Notes under the pieces: model-generated
Databases searched by the model: none
What the model was told of the DNA's origin: nothing
What the model saw: the letters and a program-made list of their open reading frames with translations, nothing else
Source: Candidatus Levyibacteriota bacterium
GTDB lineage: Bacteria; Patescibacteriota; Microgenomatia; Levybacterales; UBA12049
NCBI GenBank assembly: GCA_052034235.1
Contig: JBPOIT010000009.1
Span: 8,203 to 72,202, forward strand
Direction of reading: 5' to 3'
Length of the DNA: 64,000 bases
In this document: positions 1 to 52,994 of the stretch, one piece after another
Layout of the letters: each line of letters opens with the position of its first letter
How positions within the stretch are numbered: the stretch's first letter is position 1
Translations under genes and position numbers: made by a program

Positions 1-3000
1 CCAATGATGTCTCAATCATTACTGATGCTGATTCTTTCCTTAATATCAGCGGCTTAACAACAGCAACTGGTAATGTGGTCTGTCTTGATGCCACCAACAA
101 TGTTGTCCGCTGTGCTGCAGGTTCAATTTCATTGCAAGCTGCATATAACAGCGGTAATACTATTACGACAACCAATGCTCGAGGTATCGACTTTACCCTT
201 GCTGATACTGCTACCGATTCTAAATTCTCAGTCACCACGGCAACAGGTTCGACTGCTGGTGTTGAATTCATCAGAGCTGATGGCATTGGCGCAGATGATC
301 CAACACAGCTTGTGCTTATTGATAATGCAGATGCTGACAGAATATTACCAATAGGCCTCAGACTATCCTCCTCCGGCGGTGGCGGTATCACAACTGCGAT
401 TGATGTTTCTGACGCAACGATTGGGACTGCACTTTCATTCGGAGCGAATGATTTGGTAGGAACCAATTTCACCGTTATTGGCGGTACTGGAAACATCACC
501 AGTGCTGGTGACCTTGCTCTTAATGGCGGAGATATCACCACAACACAAACAACAGCAAATGTCTTTAACGGAACGGCAACAACACTTAATGTTGGCGGCT
601 CTGCAACATCACTCACTATCGGTGCAACAACAGGAACTGCGGCCATCAGAAATGCCACCATCTCCCTACCAAATGCGACAGCAATTAATGCAGGCAGCGC
701 AGTCACCACAATTGACTCACTCGTTCTCGGCGGTGGCTATGGCACAAGTGGTCTGAGTATCAGTAACGCAGGCACGATTCAAGCTAACGGCAACTTAACT
801 ATCGACGGGACATCAACCCTTACCGGCAATATCACCAGTGCTGGAGATTTGGCGCTTAATGGCGGCGATATCACCACGACATCACTCAACGCTTCACTCT
901 TTAATGCAAACGCAACCACGATTAACATCGGCAGCGATGCAACAGCTATTACTCTCGGCGCTGCAACTGGCACAACAACTGTTAATAACGACTTAGCAGT
1001 TACCGGCACCGGCACATTTACCGACACTCTAACTGCGAATGGTGATTTTGCAGCAAATGCTGCTTCAACCTTTACACCGTCCGGTACCAATGACGTTGCT
1101 ATCATTACCGATGCTGATTCATTCCTTAACATCAGCGGATTAACAACTCCTGGCGTTGCCGGCTCTACCCTCTGTGTGGATGCATCCGACAATGTCACCA
1201 AATGTGGCGGCGCAACCTTCTCCCTCCAAGCAGCATATGCAGGCGGAAACACGATCACCACAAGTGATGCACGAGGCATCGACTTCACACTTGCTGATAC
1301 AACAACTGATTCTAAATTCAGTGTCACTACTGCGACAGGTTCAACGGGCGGTAGTGAATTCCTGAGAGCTGATGGAGCAGGTACAGATGATCCAGCACAA
1401 CTCGTTCTGATCCAAAACCTTGATGTTGATCGAGCATTACCTATTGGACTGAAGATTGCTGGCGTCACCGGCGGAAATGTCACAACCGCACTTGATCTTT
1501 CAGATGCCAACATCACAACAGCTATCGCACTCGGTGCAAATAATATCATCGGCACACAATTCAGTTTGATTGGATCAACCGGAAATATCATAACCTCAGG
1601 AGATATCGCAGTGAATGGCGGAGACATCACCACAACTTCCGGAACCGGCAATATCTTTACGAGTGGTGCGACGACACTTAACATCGGATCAGCAGCTACA
1701 ACCTACACCGTTGGAGCAACCAATGCGACAGGTAATATCCGTGGTACAACGGTTAACTTCCCTAACGCAACAACGGTTAATGGGACACTCGCAACTGCGA
1801 ACTTTGACACTGTTACTTCCGGACAAGGTTATGGCAATACTGGCGTCACCCTTTCAAGCGCAGGCAACATCTCAGCAAATGGTGCGCTTGTTATAGACGG
1901 CACCTCGACTCTTACCGGAAATGTCACTGCAGTAGCTGATGTCGCAGTCAATGGTGGCGATCTGACATCAAGTCAAACAACATTTAATCTGCTTAACACA
2001 GGTGTCACAACACTTAATATCGGCAGTGCCGCAACAGCAATTTCAATCGGCGCTGCAACTGGCGCAACAACTGTTAACAATGCTTTGAATGTAACAGGGC
2101 TCGCAACATTTAATGGTGGCGCAACGGTTCCAACTGGCGAAACCTTGACTGCAGATGGTGCATCGAACTTTACACCTGACGGCACCAATTCCGTAACTGT
2201 TAATACCGATGGAGATTCATTCCTCAAGCTAACAGGTTTGCAAACGATTACTGGTAATCTGCTCTGTTTGGACGCTTCCGATAATGTTTCAAAGTGTTCA
2301 ACCAGTTCAATCTCACTGCAAGGTGCATACACCGGCGGCAACTCCATCACCACAACAAGTAATCGTGATATCTCCTTCACCCTTGCTGACAGTGTCACAG
2401 ATTCTAACTTTGTCGTGACATCAGCAACAGGCTCAACAGGTGGATCACAATTTGTCAGAGCTGACGGTGCAGGCACATCTGACCCAACGCAACTCGTCCT
2501 GATCCAAAATCTCGACACTGATCGTGACTTACCAATTGGCATGAGAATTGCTGGCGTTACCGGTGGAAATGTCACGACCGCAATTGATTTGTCTGATGCA
2601 AATATTGTTAATGCACTTGATTTGGGAGCAAACAATATAACCGGCACATACTTCTCAGTTGATGGCGGAACTGGCAGCATCACAACAGCAGGAGATATTG
2701 CAGTGAATGGTGGAGATGTTACAACGACATCGACAACTGCAACACTGTTTAACACCGGCGCCACTACCCTATCAATCGGCGGTGTTGCTACGACATACAC
2801 ACTTGGAGCAACCAATGCGACAGGCAATATCCGTGGTACAACCATCAACTTCCCGAATGCAACAACAATCAATGGCACGCTTGCAACCGCGAACTTTGAC
2901 ACTCAGACTGTCGGCGGCGGTTACGGCTCAACAGGCGTCACCATCTCCAACACCGGCAATATCTCAGCAAACGGTAACTTAATTGTTGACGGCACCTCCA

Positions 3001-36000: not shown

Positions 36001-39000
36001 TTAACACAGGAAGTGCATACATCGGCGGAAACCTTGGAATCGGCGACGGCTCCCCTGCTGCCCCATTGACAGTAGGAAGTGGAGATCTGTTCCAGGTAGC
36101 ATCAACCGGTAACATTACCTTTAATTACACCAGTCCAATCATTAACTTTGCAAATACCGGATCACTCACATTAAGAGACGGCACCAATAACCTATTCACC
36201 TTTGCTGATACATCAAGCACTGCTACTACATTCAATGTCGGTGTAAATGGAACCACGAACGGACAAATCACCTTTGGATCAGTTGCCGGAGGAACTCAAT
36301 CCTCTATCGTATCGGAATCAGATGGTGACCTCTGGATCCAATCAGGAACTGCAACAACAATCGTCGGTCGTGGAACAGGTGATGTCTTAATTCAACCTCC
36401 ATCTGGCAATCAAACAACCGTCAACTTGCAGGGTTCAGGAAGTAACTTCCGTGTCCAAAACGCAGGCGCGACATTCTTTAACTTATCAAATCTTGGCGCT
36501 ACAACCTGGACTCAGCCATCAGCACAGAGCGTCACACTTGATGCCGTAACAAACGCCTCTACATTAAACTCATTAACAGCAGGTGTCTTTGATATCAATG
36601 TTGGTTCCGGTGTTAGTAGCAATGTTGGTTTCACACTTGACTACACAGGTAACAATGGCGCTGCAGCCAGTAGCAAGATGTATGGTCAGAGAATTAACCT
36701 TATCCAAAATGATGCAGACTCACAATTACTTGGTCTTACCATTGGTCTTTCAAGTGCGGTAACTAAAAGTGGTGCAAACATCGTTGACTGTCTCCTCTGT
36801 CTCTCAAATGCAGTTGCACAAACTGCATCTATCTCTGATGCAATCAGAATCACATCGACAGGCGCAACAGCTGGTTCAATAACAAACGGTATAAACATCA
36901 ACACCACAGATGTCACAACAGACATCGTTCTTCAGAATGGTGAAACGATTGATAACAATACCAACGGTGTAGTAACAATTGGTGGAGCAGATCTTACACT
37001 CTCTTCCGTTACTGGTGACTTAATATTTGGTAATGGTGAATCTATTAATAACGATACTAATGGAAGAATCACCGTTGCCGGAGCAGATTTGGCTCTCTCA
37101 TCCACAACCGGTGATGTGATCTTTGGAAATGCTGAATCAATTGATAACGATACTAATGGTGTTATCAACATAAATGGAGCCTTGCAAATTGATGCAACAA
37201 CTGACGATAATGAAAGACTCTGTCATAGTGGCGCTGATGGCGCTACTCAAACAAACATTCTTATTAGAGACTGTACAGTTTCTGGACAAGACTTTGCTGA
37301 ATGGTCAATTGTCGCCTCTTCCAGTGCAGAACCAGGAGATGTTGTTTATGTAGTCGGTAATGATCTTACGGATAACACATTAACATTGAAAGATATAACA
37401 ACAAATGCATACCAAAATAATGCATCAGGTATTATCAGTACCAATCCATTTATCGATATTCTTGGAGATGAACAATATAAAGGCAAAGCAGGTGCAAAAC
37501 CAATTGCACTTTCAGGCCGCGTCCCAGTTAAGGTTTCAACTATCAACGGTAATATAGCAGTCGGCGATCCACTCGTTGCATCGGCAATACCAGGCGTCGC
37601 TATGAAAGCCACCCAAAAAGGCATGATTATTGGTTTTGCAGAAGAAGCTTTCGATGGTACTGTCAGAGTAAGTGCACAGGTACTCAAACAAGAAGAAATA
37701 TTCAACAGTGATCTTGATGACCGTCAAGCATACAATTCTAATCCAGCAAATTGGGATTCTAGTGTGGGTAAGATCATGACAACTATCAATCCTTTCTTCT
37801 ACGATCCAACAAACATAGGACCTTCATATAATGGTCTGGGCAATTGGATTCATAACGGTAACTTCGATATCCTTGGGGATCTTACAGCGAGTGCGGCGGC
37901 TTTTGGCAATAATAGTGAATTGACGATTGATGGGACTGGGAATTTGACGACTACAGGTGCGGTTCAGACTCCTCTGCTTGATCTTTTGTCTGGAACGATT
38001 GAAGGATTGGGTGGGAATGTGATTAGTAAATTGGCAGCAGATTATACCGGACTGGATGCAAACAAATTTGTCTTTAAGAATGCAGTCAATGCAGATCTCT
38101 TCTCTATCGACAGTACGGGGAATGCAACATTGTCTGGAACGTTGACAACTAACGGCGGTAATTATGATTTGGCTGAAGATTATGCAACCAAAGATAAATC
38201 GTTGCAAGAAGGTGACGTTGTTTCAGTTGATGTTTTGTATGACGAACATGTCCAAAAATCAGCTGGAGCATATGATACAACAATAGTCGGCGTTTATTCT
38301 GAGAAACCAGGATTTAGATTGTCACAAACTGGATCTACTATTAACGGTGGACGTGCTGTTCCAATTGCACTTGCAGGTCGTGTACCAGTCAAAGTGAATA
38401 CAGAAAATGGTCCAATCAAAAAGGGTGACTATCTGACATCATCCTCCACCCCTGGCGTTGCGATGAAAGCAACCAAACCAGGACAAGTTCTTGGTAAAGC
38501 ACTTGCTGACTTTAGTGGAACGGGTGTTGGCAAAGTTGTTACCTTTATCAATGTCACCTTTGCAGATCCACAAAACAAACTTGCAATCCTGACAGATGAG
38601 GCAGCAGCACCTTCAGAGTTGAGTGCAGCAAATGTTACACTTCCAGCTAACTTAACAATTGATGGCCAGGTCGTAAATGGTTCACTCGCCGATGCACTGA
38701 CAGTTATCAGTGAAAATCTCAGTGCGAAATCTGTTTCTATCAATGCGCTGCAAGCAGATCTCTTCACAAAGACTGCTAAAGACGTTGAACAGGACACCAA
38801 ACTTGCAGAGCTCTCAGACAAACAAGCATCAGATGCAGCTAGCCTTGAGAACCAAGCCTCACTGCTAGGTGATAAAGTAGCGTCAAATGAAGCTATTATC
38901 GCTAATCTGAGTAAACAAATTGAAGATATCAATAATGCGTCCAGTTCTGCAGATGTGACAGCTCTTGAAGCCCGACTGAATGCACTTATTGCACAATTGA

Positions 39001-39941
39001 CAGTAACACCTGCAGCAAGTGCAAGTGCGACTCCAACTCCAGCATCACAAAGTGCACAGACGAATCCAACACCAAGTGCAGATGATCTCACATCACCTGA
39101 CCTTCTTATTGCAACCAATTCAGCATTGCCGACAGATGCCAACTTCTTCTCAAGTGCAACGATTTCAGGAGAGCTGACAGCATACACAGCAACTGTCCAG
39201 GATACATTCAAATCATTTGGCAAATCATATCTCGGAGATACAACAATTAGTGGTGATGTAATGATTACCGGTCAGACACTTCTTAATAACACAGATGTCG
39301 CAGGGACTCTTAGTGTTGATGATCATATCAATGTTGCGGGAACGCTCACTATCACGGAGAATGCAATCAATGTCTTCGGCGGAACAGATGAATATGGTCA
39401 ACCAACAGGTGGTGTTCTCTATCTCCAGCAATCACCACTTGCTAACTTGCTTGATATCTTCAACGGCAATGTGGTGATCAATAAATCAGGAACAATTGTC
39501 ACCAAAGGTGATGTGAAAGCAAATAACATTGAAACCAAAAAGGATATCAATGTCGGTGGCAACATCAATCTTGAAGGCGGCATCACAATCAGTGCAACAG
39601 CAGGAGCAACGATAAAAGCTGGTGACGCTCTGTACATCTCAGCTGACAAACAAGTCCAAAAAGCTGACTCAAGATATGTCGACCGCGCAGATGTGATCGG
39701 TATTGCAGCAAATGACGCAGACGTCAACGAGCAGGTAAAAGTAATTATTAGCGGCAAAGCCAAAGGGCTCAGAGCACTTGAAGCAGGTGTTAAATATTAT
39801 CTCGGAATAAACGGAGGACTCACACCTGTTATTCCTGCGACTGCACTCAAAGATGTCCCAGTAGGAATCGCATTTTCAGAGACAGAACTGATCATTCAAT
39901 TGGGTTCCGAAAAACTCACCAGCGCCTCAGTAGTAAATTAA
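1..39941 (+). CDS. Giant repetitive surface protein, 5'-partial (at least 13,288 aa in window). T/G/N/A/S-rich beta-solenoid-like repeats with a phage tail-fibre-like C-terminal region.
   Basis: The frame is open from nt 3; translating nt 3-74 gives NDVSIITDADSFLNISGLTTATGN, which is part of the repeat consensus, so the gene continues upstream of the window. The stop is at 39939-39941. About 25 copies of a ~365-aa unit follow the pattern CxDA[TS][DN]NV.KC...LQ.AY.GGNTITTTDAR.I.FTLADT.TDS.F.VTTA. The composition is almost free of K/R/E/M/W/H and of Cys outside the paired motif. The C-terminus (34.9-39.9 kb) is non-repetitive. Confidence 0.85.
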   Translation, partial: NDVSIITDADSFLNISGLTTATGNVVCLDATNNVVRCAAGSISLQAAYNSGNTITTTNARGIDFTLADTATDSKFSVTTATGSTAGVEFIRADGIGADDPTQLVLIDNADADRILPIGLRLSSSGGGGITTAIDVSDATIGTALSFGANDLVGTNFTVIGGTGNITSAGDLALNGGDITTTQTTANVFNGTATTLNVGGSATSLTIGATTGTAAIRNATISLPNATAINAGSAVTTIDSLVLGGGYGTSGLSISNAGTIQANGNLTIDGTSTLTGNITSAGDLALNGGDITTTSLNASLFNANATTINIGSDATAITLGAATGTTTVNNDLAVTGTGTFTDTLTANGDFAANAASTFTPSGTNDVAIITDADSFLNISGLTTPGVAGSTLCVDASDNVTKCGGATFSLQAAYAGGNTITTSDARGIDFTLADTTTDSKFSVTTATGSTGGSEFLRADGAGTDDPAQLVLIQNLDVDRALPIGLKIAGVTGGNVTTALDLSDANITTAIALGANNIIGTQFSLIGSTGNIITSGDIAVNGGDITTTSGTGNIFTSGATTLNIGSAATTYTVGATNATGNIRGTTVNFPNATTVNGTLATANFDTVTSGQGYGNTGVTLSSAGNISANGALVIDGTSTLTGNVTAVADVAVNGGDLTSSQTTFNLLNTGVTTLNIGSAATAISIGAATGATTVNNALNVTGLATFNGGATVPTGETLTADGASNFTPDGTNSVTVNTDGDSFLKLTGLQTITGNLLCLDASDNVSKCSTSSISLQGAYTGGNSITTTSNRDISFTLADSVTDSNFVVTSATGSTGGSQFVRADGAGTSDPTQLVLIQNLDTDRDLPIGMRIAGVTGGNVTTAIDLSDANIVNALDLGANNITGTYFSVDGGTGSITTAGDIAVNGGDVTTTSTTATLFNTGATTLSIGGVATTYTLGATNATGNIRGTTINFPNATTINGTLATANFDTQTVGGGYGSTGVTISNTGNISANGNLIVDGTSTLTGNTTVGGTLGVTGATTLSSTLAVTGDTTLTGDLAVNGGDLTTTAATFNLINGNATTVNFAGAATSLIMGAPTGTAQIRNDVVSLPNATAFDALAALARVDGLQVGGGYGATGATITNTGNISANGALVIDGTSTLTGNVTAASDVAINGGDLTTTQTTFNLLDSVATTVNFAGAATTLEIGSGTGRTTLDNNLTANLVDNNVDALDIQEGLNNYININTSDNAENISFGNGTTNPTYNFVGTGLTTFASDIAVNGGDITTTSGTGNIFTSGATTLNIGSAATTYTLGATNATGNIRGTTINFPNATTINGTLSTANFDTVTSGQGYGNTGVTLSNTGNISANGALIVDGTSTLTGNVTAGADVAVNGGDLTTTAGTFNLLTANATAINFGSAATALSIGAGTGTTTVNNALTATGLITANGGATVATGQTFTANGASTFNPDSNNDVTINTDADSFLTVTGLQTATGTLVCLDGSDNIAKCSTSSISLQSAYTGGNTIATTDNRDIAFTLADTATDSNFIVTTATDSTGGSQFLRADGAGTSDPTQLVLIQNLDSDNALPIGLKIAGIAGGNITTALDLSDTNITTAIALGANSISGTNFSLNGTNGNVTTGGDVAVNGGDLTTTSGTFNLVNSGATTLNIGGVATTYTLGATNATGNIRGTTVNFPNATTINGTLATANFDTITSGQGYGTAGVTLSNAGDISANGALIVDGTSTLTGDVTAAADVAVNGGDLTTSATTFNLLNTTATTLNIGGDATTVSIGDATGTTTVNNALTATGLITANAGATVSTGQTFTANGQSTFTPNLTNDINITTDADSFLNIAGLTTATGNTVCIDATNNIVKCSAASITLQSAYDGGNTITTTDGRSIGFTLADTTTDANFSVTTAPGGEGYSYFGLTDGTNTTSPAQLVLVENLDTDEALATGIRIQSAAGGITTALDVSDIEIGTALLFGANDITGTNFSVTGTNGNVGTAGTITAAGNINANSGTLATTQTTGNLFNATVTTLNIGGAATTYTLGATNATGNIRGTTINFPNATAINGTSATANFDTITAGQGYGTAGVTLSNAGDISANGALIIDGTSTLTGNVTAATDVAINGGDLTTSATTFNLLNATATTINFGSAATALSIGAGTGTTNINNDLLIDGTTTSTGLATFNGGATVATGQTFLANGISTFSPDSTNDVTINTDADSRLVLTGLQTAAGNALCIDATNNVTLCNGAPFGLQAAYNTGNTITTTDARGIDFTLANTSTDANFSVTTAPGSTGYSYFALADGANATTPSQLVLVENLDTNQALPTGIRIQSAAGGITTALDVSDAEIGTAISFGANDLSGTYFSVAGGTGDVTSAGDAAFNGGDITTTSTNASLFDTNATTLSIGGAATTLTLGGNGGTATINNTTVALANATAFDALTALARVDGLQVGGGYGSTGVTITNTGNISANGNLIVDGTSTLTGNVTAGADVAVNGGDITTTSTNASLFDTNATTLNIGGAATAIAVGAGTGTTTLNNNLTVNLVDNNANALDIQENGNNYININTTDNAENISFGNGATNPTYNFVGAGLASFASDIAVNGGDILTSAATATVFNTNATNLSIGGAATTLTLGATTGTATIRNATVALPNALVGIGTASPISALQVTRPLSLGATGKALAIFDQNENQDILTASAAGVTRFTVSNAGNITNSGTITAGGDITTAGDLAVNGGDITTTAGTFNLVNTGATALNIGGDATAVSIGDTTGTTTINNATVNFANATSFTAPTAVATLDSLQIGGGYGSSGTTLTNTGNISANGALIIDGTSTLTGNVTTAGDIAVNGGDITTTQTTAALFNTNATTISIGSVATTISIGAGTGTTTINNNLGVTGTSTFTGLGTFNGGATVATGQTFTADGISTFTPDNTNDVTINTDADSFLVLSGLTTPVAAGTALCIDSSDNVTKCSGNTVTLQTAYTGGNTITTTDARGIDFTLANTTTDSNFSVTTADDATGFSAFTRVNGTGTNNPAQLILVDNLDTDQAIAAGIKIQSAGGGITNGLDVSDAQIVNAIALGDNNITGTYFSVDGGTGSITSAGDIAVNGGDVTTSATTGNLFNAGATIVNVGGAATTVAIGAATGTTTIYNQTLALPNATAINAGSAVTTIDSLVLGGGYGTSGLSISNAGTIQANGNLTIDGTSTLTGDVSTAGDLAVNGGDITTTAGIVNLVNANATTINFGSAATALSIGAATGTTNINNNLLVDGTTTSTGLATFNGGATVSTGQTFLADGISTFSPDSTNDVTINTDSDSFLVLTGLTTPVAAGTQLCVDATNNVTKCSGNTVTLQSAYTGGNTITTTDDRTISFTLADTAIDSNFSVQTAAGSTGYNYFSLQNGTNTTSPAQLVLVENLDVNEALATGIRIQSAAGGITTALDLSDADIVTALLLGLNDVTATNYSIAGATGNITTAGNVAVNGGAITTTAGTATIFNTGATDLSIGGDATTLSIGDATGTATINNATVALSNATAFDALTALARVDSLQVGGGYGAAGVTISNAGTIQANGNLTIDGTSTLTGDVTAAGDVAVNGGDITTSATTFNLATATATTLNIGSAGTTISIGANTGTTTINNDVVVDGTGTFSGLGTFNGGATVANGQSFTAGGQSTFTPTGTTDVVINTDADSLLTVTGLPTLTGTAVCIDGSNTIAKCSADSITLQSAYNGGNTITTTDARDISFTLADTTTDSKFAVTTATGSTGGVEFTRADGAGTADPSQLVLIQNLDTNRALPVGLKIAGVSGGNLTTALDLSDANITTAIALGTNNVVGTNFSITGSNGNIGTAGTVTAAGNINANSGTLATTETTGNLFNATVTTLNIGGAATTVEIGAATGTTSINNLTVALDNATAFDALSALARVDGLQVGGGYGAAGVTVSNTGNISANGALIVDGTSTLTGDVTAAGDLAVNGGDLTTSATTFNLLNATATTVNFAGAATTLSIGAATGTSNINNNLLVDGTTTSTGLATFNGGATVATGQTFTANGQSTFAPDSTNDINLTTDTDSFLNIAGLTTATGNAVCVDGSNNIVICSAASITLQSAYNGGNTITTADNKSISFTLADTSTDSNFSVTTADGSTGYSSFTRADGTGTSDPAQLILIDNLDTNRAVAAGIKVQAAGGGITNGIDLSDDEIVNALSLGANDITATNFSITGSNGNFGTTGTITATGNITSSADVAVNGGDLTTSAGTFNLVNSGATILNIGGDATTVAIGAATGTTTINNLTLALPNATAITAASALLTIDSLSVGNGYGSTGVTISNTGNVQANGNLTIDGTSTLTGDVTTAGNVAVNGGTISTTQTTANLFNANATTVNIGGAATTNFAGGYGATGVTLSSAGDISANGSLIIDGTSTLTGNVTTAGDLAVNGGDITSTAGTLNINAGGIVAIDDALTVTGTISDSNSNLILDDTVDIGGANGIRIDTTGDISDIDGEVTISDNTTINGTLTVTGAISDSNSNLSLNDNTDVTGDFTVSGRTTLGSATQGDGTLNVTGAQAGKALVILNETGDQNILTASASGTTVLNVMRNGNLQIEGSLSDLSDATLNINDSLDVAGNFTLTGTISDTNSNLILDDTVDIGGANGIRIDTTGQISDIDGIVAIVDNTTIDGTLTVTGAISDSNSNLSLNDNTDVTGTFTASGQTTIGTAVQGDGLFNVTGAQTGKALAIFNETGDQNILTASASGTTVFNLGRTGNVAIEGSLSDLSDAALTINDSLSVTGDATVTGITTLNGALIANSTANFQDVTGITVGVDAATNTKGVIKLIGEGSNNYSTTFQTGIQTQDVTYTLPLDDGSTNYVLSTDGNGVLSWQSASGVGAGTINAVGNVVTGSAFTGSDSSANKGNELYFEGSTSTDDGNEILLTAVNPSADRTYTMPDLGTNGTFAFLEGTQTFTGLKTFAPAADNVGLTVTSSTTDDGEGFRLNFTQSDDTNANDTGSALSIALTSSSGDADSLYGVNLEDISAGAANEVGLRIGAGYDYGIEFEGSSANNNELFLTAANATADRTITLPDLTGTVALLENAQSFTGLKSFTNASGIIVGEDLATNTKGVITLIGEGANNFSTTFQTTTQSQNITYTLPADDGVNNYVLSTDGSGNLSWQSASGVGAGTITAVGNVLTGTSFTGSDSSVQKGNELYFEGSTSTDDAYEILLTAVNPSADRIYTMPDLGTDGTFAFLEGTQTFSGAKTFNDLTIADTNVVLSGGDSTLDITGAATRTLSLLNSTGGQVANLDLTDGGLFTGSTSRLTNAGGLENITGYSQTSGNFQQTGAGTFSTGTGNVSLNGDTSVTSDNTFTVGTGLTSLGGQLGVSSYATFSATVDIADDTTIGGTLDVAGATTLNSTLDVDGTATFNGDILQTGSGALTTGTGAVTLNGDTTLVSGKTLTTTGSLAANGQSTFTPTGTNDVSFVTDTDSFINITGLTTATGTAVCIDATNNIVKCSAASSTLQGAYVGGNTITTSDARDITFTLANTATDSNFTVTTAAGGAGYSYFGLADGTNTAPPAQLVLVENLDTDEALPAGIKIQSASGGITNGLDVSDAQIVNAIALGENNITGTYFSVDGGTGNVTAAGSASIGGGYGSTGVTISSAGNIQANGTLTIDGTSTLTGDVTASGDLAVNGGDITTSSGTAAIFNTGATSLSIGGAATTLSLGAGTGTTTVNNALTATGLITANAGATIPTGQSLTANGASTFSPNLTNDVTINTDTDSFLTITGLTTPGLAGNALCVDATNNVTKCAASTFTLQGAYDGGNSLTTTDARNISFTLADTSTDSNFAITTADGSTGYTSFTRANGAGTADPAQLILVDNLDTDRSITAGIKIQSAAGTITNGIDLSDIEIVNALSLGANDIIASNFTLNGNNGDITTAGDIAVNGGTITTTQATAEIFNTNATNLSIGGAATTLSLGAATGTATINNATVNFANATSFTAAGAAATFDSVAVGGGYGSTGATISNTGNISANGVLIVDGTSTLTGDVTTAGDIAVNGGDITTSAGTAALFNTGASTVNIGGDATTVSIGDATGTTTVNNALTATGLITANAGATVATGQTFTANGQSTFTPNLTNDISITTDTDSFLNVAGLTTATGNALCIDATDNIVKCSAASITLQSAYTGGNTITTTDARGIDFTLANTATDSNFSITTADDSTGFSAFTRVNGTGTNNPAQLILVDNLDTDQAIAAGIKIQSAAGGITNGIDLSDIDIVNALSLGANDVIASNFSITGSNGNIGTGGTITATGDINANSGTLATTQTTANLFNATATTLNIGGAATTLTLGAATGTATINNATINFPNATSFTAPNAAATFDSVAIGGGYGTAGATISNAGTIQANGNLTIDGTSTLTGDVTTGGTINANGGTIATTQTTANLLNATATTVNFAGAATTLSIGAATGTSNINNNLLVDGTTTSTGLATFNGGATVATGQTFSAGGQSTFTPDSTNDINITTDADSFLNIAGLTTATGNTVCIDATNNIVKCSAASITLQSAYNGGNTITTTDNKSISFTLANTATDSNFSVQTAAGGAGYSYFGLVDGTNTAPPAQLVLIENLDTDEALDTGLRIQAAAGGINTAIDLSDADIDTALLLGANDVTGSNFSITGSNGNIGTGGTITATGDITSGGNLAANTGSLTTTATSANLFNTNATTLAIGGAATTLTLGATTGTATISNATINFPNATSFTAPNAAATFDSVAIGGGYGAAGATISNSGTIQANGNLTIDGTSTLTGNVTTAGDVAVNGGDVTTTQTIAALFNTNATTLNIGGVATTISIGAGSGTTTVNNALTATGLITANAGATVANGQTFTAGGQSTFTPTGTNDVSITTDADSFLNVAGLTTAAGDNICIDATNNIVKCATASVTLQEAYDGGNTITTTDARSIDFTLANTATDSNFSVQTAAGSTGYNYFSLANGTNTTSPAQLVLIENLDTDEALDTGIRIQAAAGGINTAIDLSDADIDTALLLGANDVTGASFSITGANGNIGTGGTITAAGDINANSGTLATTQTTANLFNTNATTLNVGGAATSVVLGATTGTATINNATVNFANATSFTAPTAAATLDSLQIGGGYGSSGTTLTNTGNISANGALVIDGTSTLTGNVTTAGDVAVNGGDVTTTFATGNLFNTNATTVNVGGAATAYTIGAPTATGNIRGTTINFTNATTIDANLAAASIDSATIGGGYGTSGVSISNAGTIQANGNLTVDGTSTLTGDVTTAGDVAVNGGDLTSSAGTFNLVNTGTTTLNIGGDATTVSIGDATGTTTVNNALTATGLITANAGATVATGQTFTANGASTFSPNLTNDVTINTDADSFLVLTGLQTAAGDTVCIDATNNIVKCATAAGTLQSAYNSGNTITTTDARDLTFSLANTSTDSNFTITTAAGSTGYTYFGLADGTNTTPPAQLVLVENLDTDEALPAGIKVRSASGTITNGIDLSDDEIVNALTLGANDVTATNFSITGTNGNIGTGGTITAAGNINANSGTLATTQTTGNLFNATVTTLNIGGAATTYTLGATNATGNIRGTTINFPNATAINGTSATANFDTITSGQGYGTAGVTLSNAGDISANGALIIDGTSTLTGNVTAATDVAINGGDLTTSSTTFNLLNATATTINFGSAATALSIGAGTGTTNINNNLLVDGTTTSTGLATFNGGATVATGQTFTANGQSTFTPNLTNDINITTDADSFLNVAGLTTAAGDNICIDATNNIVICATAAVTLQGAYDGGNTISTTDARNISFTLEDTATDSNFSVQTAAGGAGYSYFGLADGTNTTPPAQLVLVENLDTNEAVPAGIKIQSAAGGITTALDVSDAEIGTALLFGENNITGTYFSVTGSNGNVGTAGTITAAGNINANSGTLATTQTTANLFNATATTLNIGGAATTLNLGANSGTATINNATINFPTATSFTAPNAAATFDSVAIGGGYGSTGVTISTAGNIQANGTLTVDGVSTLTGNVTASADLAVNGGDLTSSQTTFNLLNSGVTTLNIGNDATTVSIGETTGTTTVNNDLAVTGAGTFTGTLTANGDFAANSASAFTPSGTNDVTITSDADSFLVLPGLTTPGTAGSTLCVDATNNVTKCSANTITLQSAYTGGNTITTTNNRDISFTLANTATDSNFAVTTADDSTGYAAFTRVNGTGTNNPAQLILVDNLDTDQAIAAGIKIQSAAGTITNGIDLSDIDIVNALSLGANDIIATNFTLDGTTGTITTAGDLALNGSDITTTSTGIASVFNTNATTLNVGGAATALNLGAATGTATINNATINFPTATSFTAPNAAATFSSVAIGGGYGSTGVTISTAGNIQANGTLTVDGVSTLTGNVTAAADLAVNGGDLTTNQTTFNLIDAGATTVNFAGAATTLAIGAGTGTTTLDNNLTANLVDNNADALDIQENGYNYININTTDGSEEVAFGNGTTNPIYSFLGNGATSFAGNVAVNGGTLSTSQSSANLFNTNATTLSVGGAATTLNLGATTGTANIRNVTINFANATSFTAPNAAATFDSVAIGGGYGSTGVTISNAGNIQANGTLTVDGVSTLTGNVTAAADVAINGGDLTSSQTTFNLLNSGVTTLNIGSDATVLSLGDATGTTTVNNALTVTGAATFNGGATVPASQTFSANGVSTFAPNLTNDVTFTTDSDSTIILNGLGTTTGTPLCLDATNNVVQCANASLSLQNAYVGGNTITTTDARNISFTLADTATDSNFSVQTAAGGAGYSYFGLVDGTNTAPPAQLVLIENLDTDEALDTGLRIQADAGGINTAIDLSDTDIDTALLLGANDVTGSNFSITGTNGNIGTGGTITATGNINANSGTIATSQSTGNLFNTTATTLNIGGAATTYTLGATNATGNIRGTTINFPNATTINGTLATANFDIITSGQGFGNSGVTLASNGNISGDGDLTIGGAAAITGTATVTGDVAVNGGDLTTTATTFNLLNSTATTVNFAGAATTLAIGAGTGTTNINNDLLIDGTTTSTGLATFNGGATVSNGQTFNANGASNFAPTLTNDITFTTDTDSTVILNGLGTTTGTPLCLDATNNVVQCANATLSLQNAYAGGNTITTTDARNIGFTLANTTTDSNFTVTTAAGSEGYSYFGLADGTNTAPPAQLVLVENLDTDEALPAGIKIQSAAGGITNGIDLSDPEILNALSLGLNDVTANNFSITGSNGNIGTGGTITATGNITTAGDVAANGGDVTTTTSTGNLFNTNATTVNIGGVATALTLGANTGSATIRNETVTFSNATTFDATSATANFNIVTAGQGYGNTGVTLGNTGNIQANGTLTIDSTSTLTGNVTAAADVAINGGDLTSSQTTFNLLNSGVTTLNVGGVATALNFGAATGTTTINNLTLALPNATAINATAATANLDIVNVGGGYGSAGVTLGNTGNIQANGNLTIDGTSTLTGDVTAAADVAINGGDLTSSQTTFNLLNSGVTTLNVGGAATTLSLGAGTGTTTLNNNLTANLMDDSADALDIQEASHNYINVNTTNNFEEIQFGNTVTNPIYSFLGSGASTFSGNINANSGTIATNQTIANLFNTTATTLSIGGAATNLTMGANNSGTTTIRNSTLALPNARVGIGTSTPISMLHVTRPLSLGAIGKATAIFDQYESQDILTASAAGTTRFTVSNAGNITNSGTITAGGDITTTGDVAVNGGDLTTTAGTAALFNTGATTVNIGGAATTVNIGNAAGTTFVNGGLTVANGETFTAGGQSTFTPTGTNGVTITTDADSFLTVNGLASATGTAVCIDATNHIITCDDASQSLQSAYDNGNSITTTNNRDIDFTLANTGTDSLFSVSTADDSTGYSVFSRTNGAGTNDPTQLVLIDNEDADRALPVGLKISSTGGGGITTGIDLSDATIDDAIILGANDVVGSSFTIDGSNGNITTTGVIAANGGSITTNQTTANVFNTNATSLSIGGAATTLNLGATTGTAAIRNATISFPNATTVSAANATGNFSALTTGGGYASTGTTISSTGDIQTKGALTVDGISTLTGNVTASADLAVNGGDLTTTSGTAALFNTGATTLNIGGAATTVSIGNAAGTTTVNGGLTVANGETFTAGGQSTFTPTGTNGIAITTDADSFLTIDGLAAVTGGTLCVNTSDQVGTCSAASFSLQAAYDAGNNITTTDAKPIDFVLANTTTDSNFSVTTADGSIGHSVFARANGVGTSDPAQLILVDNLDTNRAVAAGIKVQAASGGITNGIDLSDAEILNALSLGDNDIISTNFTLTGSNGNLTTTGAIAANGGTISTDDTTFTLVDANATTVNFAGAATTLNIGAGSGTATINNQTISLPNATALSASGATVTIDAATIGGGYGSAGVSITNAGNISANGALIVDGTSTLTGNVSTNGDIAVNGGDVTTTFATGNLFNSGATTLNIGGAATTVSLGNAGGTTTINGNLTLGADKTLTTTGAVSLTPSGTLDVAITTDSDSFLNISGLTTTTGAQPTLCVDATNNVVKCDLTANASLQAAYDNGNSIATTNNRNIDFTLTNDVTDSNFLITTADGSTGKTIFARANGAGTTDPSQLVLINNADANRPLPVGLAITSSGGGGVTTGIDLSDASIDDALVLGANDVVGSSFTIDGSNGNIQTSGTAAINSGTISTTSSTGSLFDTNATTITLGSAATTYTIGATNATGNIRGTTINFPNATTINGTAAALNVLSSAIGGGYGTAGTTLSAAGDISANGALIVDGTSTLTGAVTASNGVTINGASTSDLIAAKTTANLFNTVATTLNIGGAATTINIGNAAGTTTVNGGLTVANGETFTAGGQSNFTPTGTDGITITTDADSFLTLNGLASDPGTAICIDATNHVITCDNTSQNLQAAYDAGNNITTTDARSIDFVLDDTTTDSNFSVTTADGATGYSVFSRENGTGTADPAQLILVDNADANRPITTGIKVTSSGGGGFGTGIDVSDASITTGIALGENDLSATNFSIVGSTGNFSTNGDLEVKGNDITTTTAGVAAVFNTNATTINIGGAATTYTLGATNATGNIRGTTINLPNATTLSATSATANFDIVTSGGGYSNSGVTLSTAGDISANGALIVDGTSTLTGNVTASADVAVNGGDLTTTAGTASIFNASATTINLGAGATTGINIGNAAGTTTVNSALTVAAARTFTAGGQSTFNPDSTNDVTMNLDADSFLTLVGLQSAAGSGLCINATNQVVACNDASEGLQAAYDNGNSITTTTARDIVFNLDDTATDSKFAINTLSGAAGGVEISRADGTGTTDPTQLVLIQNQDTNRALPIALRITGVAGGAVTTALDVSNADIVTAIALGANDITGSVFNVTGSNGNVTAGNVAVNGGDLTTTAGTFNLVNTGATTLNVGGAATTYTLGATNATGNIRGTTINFPNATSIVGSAATASFAQLNTGGGYGSTGTTIEGNGTIKTKGNLTVDGTSLLSGIATASAGLVIDGVTQSSLIAVKSTANLFNTVATTLNIGGAATTVSLGATGGTTTVNGALTVASAQAFQALGNATLGNGDDTIALNGTTITLTANGAGNDITANLVDDNTDALDIQQGTNNYININTSNGTEEIQFGNVSTNPDYTFLGTSAMTVGGDLIVNGGDLYATSGTTVNLFNTAQTDNLNIGTDANATVSIGGASTLTTINGGLTVSSTTLNTNIGSPLVNLSGNNAVIDMSGTGTLGINTTTDRAVNFGAGAFSIESATVTLTGTNPAIAASGANNLQINGGASGLVQINNTSTGNVEIAGGSGATGCTINNSTGALTCSGNITSSGSSGSVTVGYFSKDFATGVISNATASDTLAVSTTSVTQPALALTNSSTAGAASGTTYMLDILRSGANANATHTAYGVRSRVTNTGSGETNIAGYFSASGDGTGAYYAGIFDAGNVGVGTTAPNDKLVLGAGNNFGINVGAPTTLSLTPNVGGGTFAAGTYYYKVTALDAAGNETTNSTESSATVALNGTINVDWAAVSGATSYRIYRGTSSNNQTVYFTSTSDVYLDTGTAGTAGTPPSTGFNNAYAIKLLNTGSAYIGGNLGIGDGSPAAPLTVGSGDLFQVASTGNITFNYTSPIINFANTGSLTLRDGTNNLFTFADTSSTATTFNVGVNGTTNGQITFGSVAGGTQSSIVSESDGDLWIQSGTATTIVGRGTGDVLIQPPSGNQTTVNLQGSGSNFRVQNAGATFFNLSNLGATTWTQPSAQSVTLDAVTNASTLNSLTAGVFDINVGSGVSSNVGFTLDYTGNNGAAASSKMYGQRINLIQNDADSQLLGLTIGLSSAVTKSGANIVDCLLCLSNAVAQTASISDAIRITSTGATAGSITNGININTTDVTTDIVLQNGETIDNNTNGVVTIGGADLTLSSVTGDLIFGNGESINNDTNGRITVAGADLALSSTTGDVIFGNAESIDNDTNGVININGALQIDATTDDNERLCHSGADGATQTNILIRDCTVSGQDFAEWSIVASSSAEPGDVVYVVGNDLTDNTLTLKDITTNAYQNNASGIISTNPFIDILGDEQYKGKAGAKPIALSGRVPVKVSTINGNIAVGDPLVASAIPGVAMKATQKGMIIGFAEEAFDGTVRVSAQVLKQEEIFNSDLDDRQAYNSNPANWDSSVGKIMTTINPFFYDPTNIGPSYNGLGNWIHNGNFDILGDLTASAAAFGNNSELTIDGTGNLTTTGAVQTPLLDLLSGTIEGLGGNVISKLAADYTGLDANKFVFKNAVNADLFSIDSTGNATLSGTLTTNGGNYDLAEDYATKDKSLQEGDVVSVDVLYDEHVQKSAGAYDTTIVGVYSEKPGFRLSQTGSTINGGRAVPIALAGRVPVKVNTENGPIKKGDYLTSSSTPGVAMKATKPGQVLGKALADFSGTGVGKVVTFINVTFADPQNKLAILTDEAAAPSELSAANVTLPANLTIDGQVVNGSLADALTVISENLSAKSVSINALQADLFTKTAKDVEQDTKLAELSDKQASDAASLENQASLLGDKVASNEAIIANLSKQIEDINNASSSADVTALEARLNALIAQLTVTPAASASATPTPASQSAQTNPTPSADDLTSPDLLIATNSALPTDANFFSSATISGELTAYTATVQDTFKSFGKSYLGDTTISGDVMITGQTLLNNTDVAGTLSVDDHINVAGTLTITENAINVFGGTDEYGQPTGGVLYLQQSPLANLLDIFNGNVVINKSGTIVTKGDVKANNIETKKDINVGGNINLEGGITISATAGATIKAGDALYISADKQVQKADSRYVDRADVIGIAANDADVNEQVKVIISGKAKGLRALEAGVKYYLGINGGLTPVIPATALKDVPVGIAFSETELIIQLGSEKLTSASVVN
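3588..3735 (+). repeat. Insert module ALDIQE-NYININT-(D/N)xxExI(S/Q)FGN-TNPxY-F-G, copy 1 of 5
   Basis: TANLVDNNVDALDIQEGLNNYININTSDNAENISFGNGTTNPTYNFVG. Paralogous copies lie at 7548-7695, 25172-25320, 28412-28560 and 34552-34700. Confidence 0.7.
7548..8290 (+). repeat. Composite module: ALDIQE/NYININT insert followed by a VGIGTASPISALQVTRPLSLGATGKALAIFDQ...ILTASAAG.TRFTVSNAGNITNSGTITAGGDITT block. It is paralogous to 28412-29120.
   Basis: Long collinear protein similarity between the two blocks, for example PNA[LR]VGIGT[AS][ST]PIS.L.VTRPLSLGA.GKA.AIFDQ.E.QDILTASAAG.TRFTVSNAGNITNSGTITAGGDITT. Confidence 0.7.
13040..16300 (+). repeat. Divergent internal block that interrupts the super-repeat array. 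It holds two tandem ~490-nt modules (13255-13745 and 13750-14235: TGTISDSNSNLILDDTVDIGGANGIRIDTTG.ISDIDG...GKAL.I.NETGDQNILTASASGTTV) and two ~470-nt modules (14300-14770 and 15170-15640: NTKGVI.LIGEG.NN.STTFQT..Q.Q..TYTLP.DDG.NYVLSTDG.G.LSWQSASGVGAGTI...GNELYFEGSTSTDD..EILLTAVNPSADR.YTMPDLGT.GTFAFLEGTQTF.G.KTF).
   Basis: Direct protein and DNA self-similarity. The DNA pairs are ~90% identical, for example 14590-14750 vs 15460-15620. Confidence 0.7.
28412..29120 (+). repeat. Second copy of the composite insert + VGIGTSTP module (paralog of 7548-8290)
   Basis: NLTANLMDDSADALDIQEASHNYINVNTTNNFEEIQFGNTVTNPIYSFLG ... PNARVGIGTSTPISMLHVTRPLSLGAIGKATAIFDQYESQDILTASAAGTTRFTVSNAGNITNSGTITAGGDITTTGDVAVNGGDLTTTAGT. 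Confidence 0.7.
35701..35940 (+). other. Fibronectin-type-III-like domain inside the giant protein, flanked by tail-fibre-type G-x-G-x-G-T-x-x-P motifs (NVGVGTTAPNDKLVL at ~35598-35645; GNLGIGDGSPAAPLTV at ~36028-36075)
   Basis: GTYYYKVTALDAAGNETTNSTESSATVALNGTINVDWAAVSGATSYRIYRGTSS matches the Fn3 pattern Y.Y.V.A.D..GNES..S..V...W..V.GA..Y.IYR. The flanking VG[IV]GTTxP motifs are typical of phage tail-fibre and chlorovirus-glycoprotein-type repeats (from memory). Confidence 0.5.
36910..37200 (+). repeat. Three tandem ~27-aa repeats (LQNGETIDNNTNGVVTIGGADLTLSSVTGDLIFGNGESINNDTNGRITVAGADLALSSTTGDVIFGNAESIDNDTNGVININGA)
   Basis: Direct reading of the translated sequence. Confidence 0.7.
37220..38570 (+). 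other. Duplicated C-terminal modules of the giant protein: D[FL]AE[WD]...GDVV.V ... GR[VA]P[IV]KV...G.I..GD.L..S..PGVAMKAT. Copy 1 lies at ~37220-37690 and copy 2 at ~38140-38570. A coiled-coil segment (~38600-39010) and a possible third degenerate copy (~39600-39900) follow.
   Basis: Copy 1: DFAEWSIVASSSAEPGDVVYVV...KPIALSGRVPVKVSTINGNIAVGDPLVASAIPGVAMKATQKG. Copy 2: DLAEDYATKDKSLQEGDVVSVD...AVPIALAGRVPVKVNTENGPIKKGDYLTSSSTPGVAMKATKPG. The region 38600-39010 is heptad-like and rich in A/L/E/Q/K/S. The family assignment (tail-fibre tip or intramolecular-chaperone-like) is not established. Confidence 0.45.
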
Positions 39942-40247: not shown

Positions 40248-41228
40248 TTAATCACGTTTAACAACCTCGTCATACACCTTCTTGGAGATTTGTTCTATAA
40301 CTTCTTCTTGATCTGCAATATTTTTCCCTTTAGTCATAATGCATAGAGCATATGGACTTTCAGGATAATAGACAATACCACAATCGTGTAATTGTTGTTC
40401 ATCGCCACGTTTTATCTCTCCGAATTTGTGCGCAACAGGTATGCCTGATGGAATACCTGCTACTAATCCTTCTTTAAATTCTGTTTGTGATAAAAATTCC
40501 AATGCTTTATTAGACATTTCAAAATTTAGATATGATGAATTATAAAGAATTCGAAAAATTGCAGCATATGAATGTACGGCAATATACTGTTCTATATCAC
40601 CTTTTCTTGGATCTATGATACCTAGATCACTTAATGTATCAATGAAATCTTCTTGCGAATACTCTTGATTCAAATATTTTAAAAGCAGCTCCTGTGCAGT
40701 ATTTTCTGATTGTGTGATAAGAATTTTTAGTACTTCTTCAATCGTATATGTTTTACCTTTCTCAATCTTTACCTTCGGTTTGATATTTTGATCTACGATC
40801 TTAATATCACTTACCACAGTGAGCGTTTTTTTCAATAATGAAGGGTCTGCCTCTGCCTTTTTTAAATAAGTCATCAGCAGGGGTACTTTGAGTAAACTGG
40901 CTGGTGCAAAATCTTCGTTTGCATTAATACTCATCAGTGGACCATTTTGAAGATCTCTAAAATGTATCGCAACAGTGGACACTTTCCCTGCTGCGCTTTC
41001 AGTCTCAATAACTTCCAACAGATCATTTCGTAAAGTTACGTATTCCTTCTTTTTAACAGGATCCGTTTCGCAACGCAGAGGATTTAGATACGCATAGGGA
41101 CATTCTGCTTCTGTTGAGATTTGTGTCAAATTTTTACTTTTTTTTGCAGAAGTATTATATAAAGAAAACCCTAGTGCAAGGATGATAGTTAATAAAATTA
41201 GATAAATAATTATATTAGTTTTATTCAT
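40248..41228 (-). CDS. Secreted/membrane-anchored serine hydrolase with class A beta-lactamase fold (SxxK, SEN)
   Basis: 326 aa. N-terminal TM/signal (IIIYLILLTIILALGF), PASLLK (SxxK), ITQSENTAQ (S[DE]N-like loop), and KFGE near the C-terminus. About 40% identical to the adjacent paralog. Confidence 0.6.
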   Translation of the reverse strand: MNKTNIIIYLILLTIILALGFSLYNTSAKKSKNLTQISTEAECPYAYLNPLRCETDPVKKKEYVTLRNDLLEVIETESAAGKVSTVAIHFRDLQNGPLMSINANEDFAPASLLKVPLLMTYLKKAEADPSLLKKTLTVVSDIKIVDQNIKPKVKIEKGKTYTIEEVLKILITQSENTAQELLLKYLNQEYSQEDFIDTLSDLGIIDPRKGDIEQYIAVHSYAAIFRILYNSSYLNFEMSNKALEFLSQTEFKEGLVAGIPSGIPVAHKFGEIKRGDEQQLHDCGIVYYPESPYALCIMTKGKNIADQEEVIEQISKKVYDEVVKRD

Positions 41229-52520: not shown

Positions 52521-52994
52521 ATGGTCGAAAACTTCACTCTTTCACAATTCAATTCTCTCTACCCTACAGATGATATTTGTCTTGAGAAAATCAAGAGAAT
52601 TAAATACCCCAAAGGTATCGTTTGTATATCCTGTAAAAAAATAACCAAGCATTACAAGGTAAAGAATAGACCTGCTTACACGTGCAAAATCTGTCGAAGT
52701 CAATTGTATCCACTTGCCGGTACAATTTTTGAAAAATCCTCTACTCCACTACGATTATGGTTTTATTCCCTCTATCTCATGATCACAACAAGAGGAGATG
52801 TCTCGGCAAAAGGCCTTCAGAGGGAATTAGGAGTAACATACAAAACTGCATGGAGAATACGTAGTGCAATTTATAAACTGATGGCCCAAAACGGAGGCGA
52901 CTTACTTGCAAAAGAGCCAGAGGAAAATACTATTAAAAAATGGACCTTCTTCAAACGTCTTACCTTTAGTGTCACAGAAACACAAAAAGGTTAG
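52521..52994 (+). mobile_element. IS1595-family (ISXO2-like) transposase, N-terminal zinc-ribbon/HTH fragment only. The DDE catalytic domain is absent.
   Basis: 157 aa. The CxxC...CxxC zinc ribbon and PLRLWFYSLYLMITTRGDVSAKGLQRELGVTYKTAWRIRSAI match the N-terminal module of IS1595/ISXO2 transposases. No DDE-domain ORF follows in any frame. Confidence 0.6.

Follow-up and report, generated by a model that had tools for sequence, protein, structure and literature searches.

A giant gene of a Levybacteria-like bacterium with a repetitive, probably extracellular product and a C-terminal module resembling phage appendages

Introduction

The first 39.9 kb of a 64,000-nucleotide stretch of DNA from a Candidatus Levyibacteriota bacterium (the window; GenBank assembly GCA_052034235.1, contig JBPOIT010000009.1, positions 8,203 to 72,202 of the forward strand) are the 3′ part of one real chromosomal gene, whose visible product of 13,312 amino acids (aa) consists mostly of diverged repeat units and ends in a non-repeat module predicted to share folds with phage appendages. 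A first-pass annotation of the window had described one very large, 5′-truncated gene with a repetitive, fibre-like and probably extracellular product, and the analysis reported here supports that description. The interpretation we favour, with moderate confidence, is that the gene encodes an extracellular fibre of more than 13,312 aa, an intertwined trimer nucleated at its C-terminus and anchored at its N-terminus, which serves as a tether of an episymbiotic cell.

Genes for proteins of more than 10,000 aa have been documented mainly in Omnitrophota and in the phyla of the Planctomycetes-Verrucomicrobia-Chlamydiae (PVC) group (bioRxiv 10.1101/2023.11.21.568195), in line with the remark of the first-pass annotation that genes of such size are rare, and huge proteins are enriched in some Candidate Phyla Radiation (CPR) lineages, Peregrinibacteria among them (PMC11573180). 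No description of the repeat unit, of a cellular protein with the C-terminal module, or of a Microgenomatia gene this large was found in a literature search. If the favoured interpretation holds, one gene would take up at least ~2.5-3% of the ~1.3-1.6-Mb genome of an ultrasmall bacterium, a fraction computed from the assemblies of its closest relatives (1.32 and 1.61 Mb). Scaling from the long tail fibre of phage T4, at ~0.05 nm per residue, gives a rough estimate of ~0.7 µm for the giant fibre, which would probably be longer than the cell itself. Such a fibre would be a definite candidate for the means by which uncultured Microgenomatia locate or retain partner cells, a matter poorly understood outside Saccharibacteria (PMC11665869, PMC12206443), and would mean that a gp12-type auto-chaperone and cement-like tulip modules of phages have been reused in a cellular surface organelle. 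The gene also marks out an uncharacterised family of 851 relatives without a curated model, whose largest members are fragmented or frameshifted in several assemblies.

An uninterrupted frame of 13,312 codons

The giant open reading frame (ORF; 3-39941, plus strand, frame 3) runs free of stops from nucleotide (nt) 3 to a stop codon at 39939-39941 and thus comprises 13,312 codons plus the stop, which confirms the unbroken frame read in the first-pass annotation; the 13,288 aa given there are the count from the first in-frame start, a GTG at nt 75. Since residues 1-11 match the end of a repeat unit and the next unit begins at aa 12, that GTG is not the real start, and the gene must extend upstream of the window, whose edge cuts it, just as had been concluded from a repeat unit already under way at the first residues. 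Base composition predicts ~661 stops over 13,312 codons (probability of zero ~1e-294), and the other two plus-strand frames contain 377 and 1,068.

Residue counts bear out the biased composition noted earlier: T accounts for 18.8%, G for 13.0%, A for 12.9%, N for 10.0%, L and S for 7.6% each, I for 6.8%, D for 6.4% and V for 5.6%, while K, R and E stand at ~1% each and M, H and W at totals of 18, 10 and 8 in 13,312 aa. Thr and Ser together make up 26% of residues. The G+C content is raised, at 47% as against ~39%, by an excess at codon position 2 (0.55 versus 0.38) that is due to the amino-acid composition; relative codon usage correlates with that of the neighbours (r = 0.87), C-ending codons being commoner in the giant gene. 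Antisense ORFs of up to 796 aa lie on the minus strand within 1-39941 (for example 11577-13967 and 19281-21512); they probably result from the ACN/GCN/GGN-rich codons, and a gene caller could take them for genes. No transcription terminator was found 3′ of the giant gene, and no tRNA genes within the 64-kb window.

Repeat array of the giant protein

Searches of the protein with its own unit (phmmer and hmmsearch) give a repeat period of 351-375 aa, so that the ~365-aa unit proposed from first inspection is real. A hidden Markov model (HMM) of the unit matches 36 times between aa 12 and ~11,790, with 25 of the 36 matches starting at the first positions of the unit, and the visible part of the protein carries 25 head-containing units of 351-375 aa. 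Each head, ~115 aa long, bears one strictly spaced C-x9-C pair (25 pairs in all) and is followed by a body of two or more ~112-aa sub-repeats, extra sub-repeats being present in some units; the strongest identity lag is 112 aa, and the other dominant lags fall at 364-375 aa. At the DNA level, one family of 100-nt repeats has 56 copies in the array.

The array is divided into two blocks. Block 1 (36-13046, plus strand; aa 12-4348), delimited by the unit searches and the DNA repeat families, contains units of ~362-375 aa, some with additional ~112-aa sub-repeats. It is separated by a non-unit insert of ~1,000 aa (13200-16310, plus strand; aa ~4400-5436), a gap in unit HMM coverage that matches no Pfam family and has duplications of its own (TYTLPxDDGxxNYVLSTDGxGxLSWQS and DRTYTMPDLGTxGTFAFLEGTQTF), from block 2 (16311-34586, plus strand; aa 5437-11528), the last five units of which (aa 9740-11528) are one-to-one orthologues of the last five at the related loci L008 and L009. 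Motifs that recur include [ST][ILV][STN][ILV]G (73 times), NGGD[IL]T (34 times) and G[DN][ILV][ATS][ILV]NGG (26 times). The pattern N-x-T-x-T-x-N-x-A, said at first reading to recur throughout, does not do so in its literal form, having three occurrences against 0.5 expected.

The units have diverged considerably. Among the 19 complete ones compared, identity ranges from 45 to 84% in protein (median 60%) and from 54 to 82% in nucleotides (median 63%), and there are only two exact repeats of at least 60 nt, of 126 and 77 nt. The 126-nt repeat lies in frame at 6201-6326 and 22716-22841 and links two units (aa 1822-2196 and 7327-7701) that are 84% identical in protein, which suggests recent gene conversion or duplication within the array. 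The N-proximal units are more alike among themselves than are the five C-proximal ones.

The visible 13,312 aa contain no hydrophobic stretch of 17 or more residues that could form a transmembrane (TM) segment and no LPXTG signal (no LP.T[GAN]), and the C-terminus is hydrophilic. Together with the 25 C-x9-C pairs, the lack of TM segments and of a sorting motif in this part points to a probably extracellular location. Scans of the units and the insert against Pfam, NCBIfam and PDB sequences returned nothing above threshold; PHROGs gave a single match for the units, to phrog_4527, 'short tail fiber' (E 8e-11).

The C-terminal module

After the array comes a non-repeat C-terminal module of 1,780 aa. 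It begins with a pre-terminal region (34587-37283, plus strand; aa 11529-12427) for which no Pfam or NCBIfam match was found and in which, on reading the sequence, we recognise an FN3-like stretch, 'YYYKVTALDAAGNET...YRIYRG' together with a 'GNVGVGTTAPNDKLVL' motif. There follow, likewise on the plus strand, two gp12-like domains of the beta-tulip type, the first at 37284-37682 (aa ~12428-12560, starting DFAEW) and the second at 38160-38567 (aa ~12720-12855, starting DLAEDY). These ~135-aa tulip domains are paralogous (40% identity, E 8e-20), and the gp12-like domain is conserved among Patescibacteria homologues.

An AlphaFold2 (AF2) model was built for the last 623 aa, aligned with homologues. 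It gives the second tulip domain a predicted local distance difference test (pLDDT) score of ~90 and a long helix 70-82, the rest being poorly modelled. In a Foldseek search of the PDB the second tulip domain matched best the pre-mature appendage protein gp12 of phage phi29 (3SUC, E 4e-5), and also the C-terminal gp12 fragment (3GQH, E 1e-3, TM-score 0.54) and the phage cement or decoration proteins of BB1, Pam3, YSD1, P21 (SHP) and XM1 as well as the phi29 gp8.5 base. The C-terminal domain of gp12 is an auto-chaperone required for trimer assembly and is cleaved off afterwards (PMC3357383). That the giant protein's C-terminal domain has this gp12 auto-chaperone fold is what the model predicts, and the sequence profile of the family aligns the conserved D-l-a-E start to residue 1 of 3GQH ('DFAEYFE', E 0.025), D33 and E36 being at least 90% conserved in the family alignment of the domain. 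For PF11962 (Peptidase_G2), no match of the window protein rose above the gathering score, and one of 15 family members matched at E 4e-4.

The long alpha-helix (38685-39002, plus strand; aa ~12895-13000), which AF2 places at query residues 206-311, is ~105 residues long, shows a heptad hydrophobic stripe and is a probable coiled coil; its profile aligns with reovirus sigma-1, at the trimeric coiled coil (E 1e-4), and with the P22 tail needle gp26 (E 0.03). A linker rich in Pro, Thr, Ser and Ala (39003-39092, plus strand; aa ~13001-13030), recognised by eye and by low pLDDT, leads to a terminal domain of ~280 aa (39093-39938, plus strand; aa ~13031-13312) with a phage-cement-like core at nt ~39540-39659. 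PF09956 scores 24.2 bits on the last 313 aa (cut-off 24; E 4.4e-5) and 23.0 bits in the 623-aa query, a similarity at the level of the domain only, and is matched in four of 15 family members; a weak Bactofilin match (E 0.045) also falls in the terminal domain. This domain is common to the homologous proteins P0001-P0003 and to loci L008-L014.

Family relatives and their N-terminal anchor

When one unit was searched with phmmer against 1.84 billion representative proteins, 851 relatives were found at E <= 1e-3. The longest of them are 2,500-4,100 aa, and none of those retrieved has more than four unit heads, as against 25 in the window; homologues in genomic data, seen only as far as the flanks retrieved, may also be very long. 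Proteins with the same C-terminal module are, among the matches listed, mostly hypotheticals of 1,000-3,100 aa from Patescibacteria, Parcubacteria or Paceibacterota, and loci encoding the module also occur in metagenome-assembled genomes (MAGs) of Levyibacteriota, Daviesbacteria and Saccharimonadales. A domain of the module is common to P0001-P0041, some Patescibacteria homologues have Peptidase_S74 (PF13884) instead, and some distant relatives of the ~112-aa sub-repeat carry the label bactofilin or DUF342 at JGI, or 'beta strand repeat-containing protein' at NCBI. Because the same C-terminal module and an array of ~351-375-aa units are found at the same chromosomal locus, the window protein is assigned, by sequence, to an uncharacterised Levybacteria/Patescibacteria fibre family (L008-L014, P0001-P0041).

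Complete or shorter members of the family carry a single TM helix close to the N-terminus, often after a cytoplasmic helix-turn-helix (HTH) domain of the MerR/excisionase type. The order of an HTH_17/MerR Pfam match, one TM helix and then the extracellular fibre is seen in P0005, P0010, P0015, P0017 and P0018 and in ORFs of L021 and L023, which suggests that these members are membrane-tethered DNA-binding proteins with a giant ectodomain.

Proposed fibre model and competing explanations

For a single unit, an AF2 monomer model based on 34 sequences reached a mean pLDDT of 76.9, with 302 of 375 residues at 70 or more; DSSP assigns to it no more than two strands of 3 residues each and one short helix, where regular strands would be expected of a single-chain solenoid. 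Intertwined fibres, when predicted as monomers, tend to come out as a confident, extended chain, and the unit model is compatible with an intertwined trimer like that of a phage tail fibre. Taken with the tailspike-type folds of the C-terminal module and the coiled coil, the strand-poor unit leads us to an intertwined multi-chain fibre, probably a trimer.

In the mechanism we propose, three chains would associate through the tulip and coiled-coil module at their C-termini, which would set the register and nucleate folding of the repeats into a trimer of intertwined chains, in the manner of phage tailspikes and tail fibres; the module may then stay as the distal tip or may, like gp12, be cut off at the conserved D-x-x-E start. 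A single membrane anchor would lie at the N-terminus outside the window, as expected from the single N-terminal TM helix of shorter, complete members, and the fibre, so anchored, would project hundreds of nanometres from the cell and, as a tether or adhesin of long range, would attach an ultrasmall episymbiotic cell to its host or to a surface. A neighbouring Wzy_C/TPR membrane protein may glycosylate the Thr/Ser-rich shaft.

Several points weigh against this interpretation. The trimer is read from predictions of monomers, and the strand-free, extended unit model could stem from a shallow alignment made up mostly of internal repeats; a fold search of the unit model against PDB and BFVD returned no significant neighbour. 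The matches of the C-terminal region to XM1_gp53, K1-lyase_C and Peptidase_G2 lie below Pfam thresholds, and tblastn against 50,697 phage genomes gave no match for the unit and one weak match for the C-terminus. Anchoring and secretion are extrapolated from homologous sequences, the N-terminus lying outside the window, and the attachment role is deduced from lifestyle and architecture. Moreover, with an N-terminal anchor and export from N- to C-terminus, the C-terminal nucleus could act only once ~13,000 residues are outside, which would be unusual.

The competing account that survives best, though we regard it as unlikely, is a single-chain beta-solenoid or beta-helix adhesin, a monomeric rod like filamentous haemagglutinin (FHA) or the passengers of autotransporters, the hallmark of which had been seen in the sequence at first reading. 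The composition, rich in T, G, N, A and S, with small and hydrophobic residues alternating, would suit such a rod, as would the bactofilin, DUF342 and 'beta strand repeat-containing protein' labels of distant sub-repeat relatives and the weak Bactofilin match in the terminal domain. However, structure prediction of a single ~365-aa unit, which the first-pass annotation had suggested as a check, gave a strand-poor model and no solenoid, with no intrachain beta-sheet despite pLDDT values of 77-90, and it is because this confident model almost lacks intrachain strands that we do not take the giant protein to be a single-chain solenoid. Nor is there a strong short coil period, the lags of 112 and 364-375 aa being dominant; the supposed hallmark motif is found only three times; no Pfam beta-helix, haemagglutinin or PbH1 family is matched; and a C-terminal module of the trimerisation type favours multi-chain assembly.

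A further alternative, to which we give a little less credence, retains the fibre but not its adhesive function: a protective or spacing coat, glycocalyx- or sheath-like, in which many long, Thr-rich and putatively glycosylated fibres would form a brush to guard the cell, against phages for instance, or to keep it at a set distance from the host. A Thr plus Ser content of over a quarter of residues would fit a coat, and so would the higher share of C-ending codons than in neighbouring genes, which may suggest high expression, and the lack of a recognisable lectin or enzyme domain in the Pfam and NCBIfam scans. It would fit, too, with the neighbouring gene for a Wzy_C (O-antigen-ligase-like) and TPR membrane protein (50034-52361, minus strand), a conserved neighbour identified with Pfam, which lies beside the fibre gene in nine or more related genomes (L009-L018) at 57-71% identity. 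We take the Wzy_C/TPR family to include O-oligosaccharyltransferases, and its member here could be a candidate partner, such as a glycosyltransferase, of the Thr/Ser-rich fibre. Against a coat, a 40-kb gene would make for a costly one, and the positionally conserved, non-interchangeable units and the conserved, elaborate tip fit a specific fibre better.

The HTH domains of some family members invite a bolder extension of the tethered fibre, which we consider rather improbable: a homotrimeric tether of submicron or micron length, laid out like a phage tail fibre and with a gp12-type auto-chaperone tip, would let a Levybacteria cell of ~0.2-0.3 µm seize or keep hold of its host, would be linked, like many shorter family members, through the TM helix to a cytoplasmic MerR/excisionase-type HTH and would signal contact or cleavage directly to transcription. 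The eukaryotic protein MyRF likewise uses trimerisation and cleavage domains derived from phage tailspikes (PMC8326128), and the giant protein would, on such an HTH-linked reading, be its bacterial analogue.

Orthologous loci and integrity of the assembly

Scanning species-representative genomes with the C-terminal 623 aa yielded 17 loci. In seven of these (L008, L009, L010, L012, L013, L014 and L018) the homologous frame is open to the edge of the 10-kb flank, giving at least 3,400-4,200 aa each, and ~360-aa units are present in five genomic homologues (L008, L009, L010, L012 and L013). L008 is located on a 1.32-Mb contig and L009 on a chromosome-level MAG of 1.61 Mb. The last five units of the window are collinear, one to one, with the last five of both, each being 66-76% identical to its positional partner, whereas identity to all other units is 54-62%. 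Over the 1,780-aa C-terminus, identity to L008 is 55% from end to end, and the C-terminal 623 aa are 41-62% identical in L008-L015 (best aligned segment, with matches spanning nearly the whole length). Between L008 and L009 the ratio of nonsynonymous to synonymous substitution rates (dN/dS) is 0.21 over 3,843 aligned codons. In related genomes the giant gene is retained, remains collinear and evolves under purifying selection.

These data bear on the worry, raised at the outset, that genes of this kind are often mis-assembled, which they largely answer: an assembly error is unlikely given the divergence of the repeats, the collinear orthologues and the purifying selection. We judge it very improbable that the giant ORF is an artefact of collapsed, expanded or chimeric paralogues, or a decaying pseudogene. 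The gene is highly repetitive, it contains the 126-nt exact in-frame repeat shared between nt 6201 and 22716, and numerous frameshifts disrupt a homologue whose contig name is of the long-read style, all of which might suggest one or the other; yet the frame has a single stop in 13,313 codons, the repeats have diverged to a median nucleotide identity of 63%, a lone two-copy repeat permits one linear order and makes any alternative impossible, and both the orthologous units (in L009 on a chromosome) and the dN/dS value speak for an intact gene. The broken homologue (L007; ENA ERZ25039513, contig_57579, 49 kb) has the array of ~365-aa units over at least 11.5 kb, with many frameshifts that are probably sequencing error in a long-read assembly, and is split into separate called genes, an example of the splitting by gene callers that had been foreseen for such genes.

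Host lineage and genomic neighbourhood

Downstream of the giant gene come two Beta-lactamase2 genes, a PKD/CBM96 protein, an MG2-like protein, the Wzy_C/TPR protein, an ORF with an IS1595-type zinc ribbon, a fragmented comM-like gene, a P-type ATPase, RuvB, RuvA, a PEMT-family methyltransferase, RuvC, ribosomal protein L25, valyl-tRNA synthetase (ValRS) and a Trans_reg_C protein. The tandem Beta-lactamase2-family paralogues (40248-41228 and 41246-42253, minus strand) lie directly 3′ of the giant gene and are kept in L008 and L009. The MG2-like (alpha-2-macroglobulin-type) protein of 1,024 aa (44747-47821, plus strand) scores 26.2 bits for Pfam MG2, below the cut-off of 32.8, and has counterparts of 45-49% identity in L008, L014 and L016. 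The order of fibre, beta-lactamase-like, MG2-like and Wzy_C/TPR genes recurs across related genomes.

The ORF at 52521-52994 (plus strand), of 157 aa, contains only the zinc ribbon of an IS1595-type transposase and no recognisable catalytic domain; it is 71 aa long in L002-L004. At 53218-54245 (plus strand) a comM/YifB-like Mg-chelatase gene is split into an N-terminal ChlI piece and, after a change of frame, a 271-aa ORF that begins at position 50 in the Mg_chelatase profile, and the split is identical in ~98%-identical strains (L001-L004). Other metagenomes contain strains with ~98% DNA identity, and in the near-identical strains retrieved by way of RuvB, the PKD protein and the MG2-like protein the loci stop short of the giant gene. 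A Logan contig (L005/L006) matches at 100%, and its end falls in the intergenic stretch immediately before the Beta-lactamase2 genes.

The housekeeping neighbours (RuvABC, L25, ValRS and the P-type ATPase) place the gene on a cellular chromosome and not in a phage. The ValRS of the window shares 74% identity with a protein from Candidatus Levybacteria, 70% with one from Microgenomates and 83% with the ValRS on the L008 contig, and on this sequence evidence the host is a Levybacteria-like Patescibacterium (CPR). Loci of the Patescibacteria type (L008, L009, L012-L016, L018, L019, L021 and L022) are in MAGs labelled 'uncultured Gammaproteobacteria bacterium'. We rejected that label for the related MAGs, in view of the ValRS on the L008 contig and its identity to that of the window, whose named relatives are Levybacteria and Microgenomates.

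Least probable of all is that the giant gene is the tail-fibre gene of a prophage, tailocin or other mobile element within the chromosome, for although the phage-like C-terminal domains, the PHROG 'short tail fiber' match and the IS1595-type zinc-ribbon ORF 12.6 kb downstream could be read that way, the 24 kb downstream contain no capsid, portal, terminase, tail or integrase genes, the locus and its housekeeping-type neighbours are kept in at least nine genomes, codon usage is like that of the neighbours, family members bear N-terminal TM anchors, and the phage genomes searched gave almost no matches.

Comparison with known systems

The closest structural parallel to the C-terminal module is gp12 of phage phi29 (3SUC, 3GQH; PF11962), with which the giant protein shares a ~135-aa C-terminal domain of the same fold by Foldseek, a D-[FL]-A-E start that corresponds to the beginning of the cleaved gp12 fragment, and the placement of this domain at the C-terminal end of an elongated, beta-rich protein. 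Cleavage before D-[FL]-A-E may occur as in gp12, and the motif is present twice (DFAEW and DLAEDY). Unlike gp12, the giant protein is encoded on a cellular chromosome, exceeds 13,000 aa as compared with 854, and has no visible single-chain beta-helix of the pectin-lyase type; its gp12-like domain is present in two copies, with a coiled coil and a further domain after them, so that it is not at the extreme C-terminus, and the sequence match is below the Pfam threshold. The module also resembles phage cement proteins (lambda gpD/P21 SHP, Pam3, BB1 and XM1 gp53; PF09956, PF22758, PF23982) in its small, trimer-forming tulip fold, but these are stand-alone capsid proteins of ~100-170 aa, whereas in the giant fibre they would be end modules. 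A virion component of a phage was rejected as an identity for the protein, given the conserved chromosomal locus, the housekeeping neighbours and the near absence of matches in phage genomes.

Long phage tail fibres that have intramolecular chaperones (T5 pb1, K1F endosialidase, T4 gp34/gp37) are very elongated homotrimers whose folding as trimers is directed by a C-terminal module (PMC3357383, PMC4690869). Like them, the giant protein combines a repetitive shaft with a putative C-terminal folding module, its trimeric state being predicted, but it is ten times longer, lacks an S74 domain, and would have its anchor in a cell and not in a baseplate. Trimeric autotransporter adhesins (YadA, UspA1, Hia) are likewise elongated, as the giant fibre is, and have a coiled-coil segment in common with this probable trimer, and weak profile matches (E ~0.04) to coiled-coil fragments of such adhesins were obtained. 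Membership of that class was rejected, as Pfam scans of the C-terminal 1,979 aa detected no YadA anchor (PF03895), Hep_Hag or HIM, and the host here, in contrast to theirs, belongs to the CPR and gives no sign of possessing an outer membrane. A Gram-positive giant adhesin anchored by LPXTG was rejected as well, there being no sorting signal and the C-terminus being hydrophilic.

In size, the gene is matched by those for the giant surface proteins of Omnitrophota (bioRxiv 10.1101/2023.11.21.568195), Apilactobacillus (Giant1-5, PMC12863079) and the CPR Peregrinibacteria (PMC11573180), which also exceed 10,000 aa, and there are further likenesses to giant surface proteins and adhesins in an ultrasmall, probably host-dependent bacterium and in a repetitive, probably extracellular product for which adhesion is proposed. 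The giant proteins of Omnitrophota have numerous TM regions and a SecA DEAD-like helicase domain (bioRxiv 10.1101/2023.11.21.568195); a protein of that type was rejected, since the visible part of the window protein has no TM segment and the pieces scanned with Pfam no SecA-like helicase. What sets the giant fibre apart from all of these is a different repeat unit and a Patescibacteria host, and its distinguishing features are the combination of an assembly module in the style of phage tailspikes with an extreme size relative to a genome of ~1.3-1.6 Mb.

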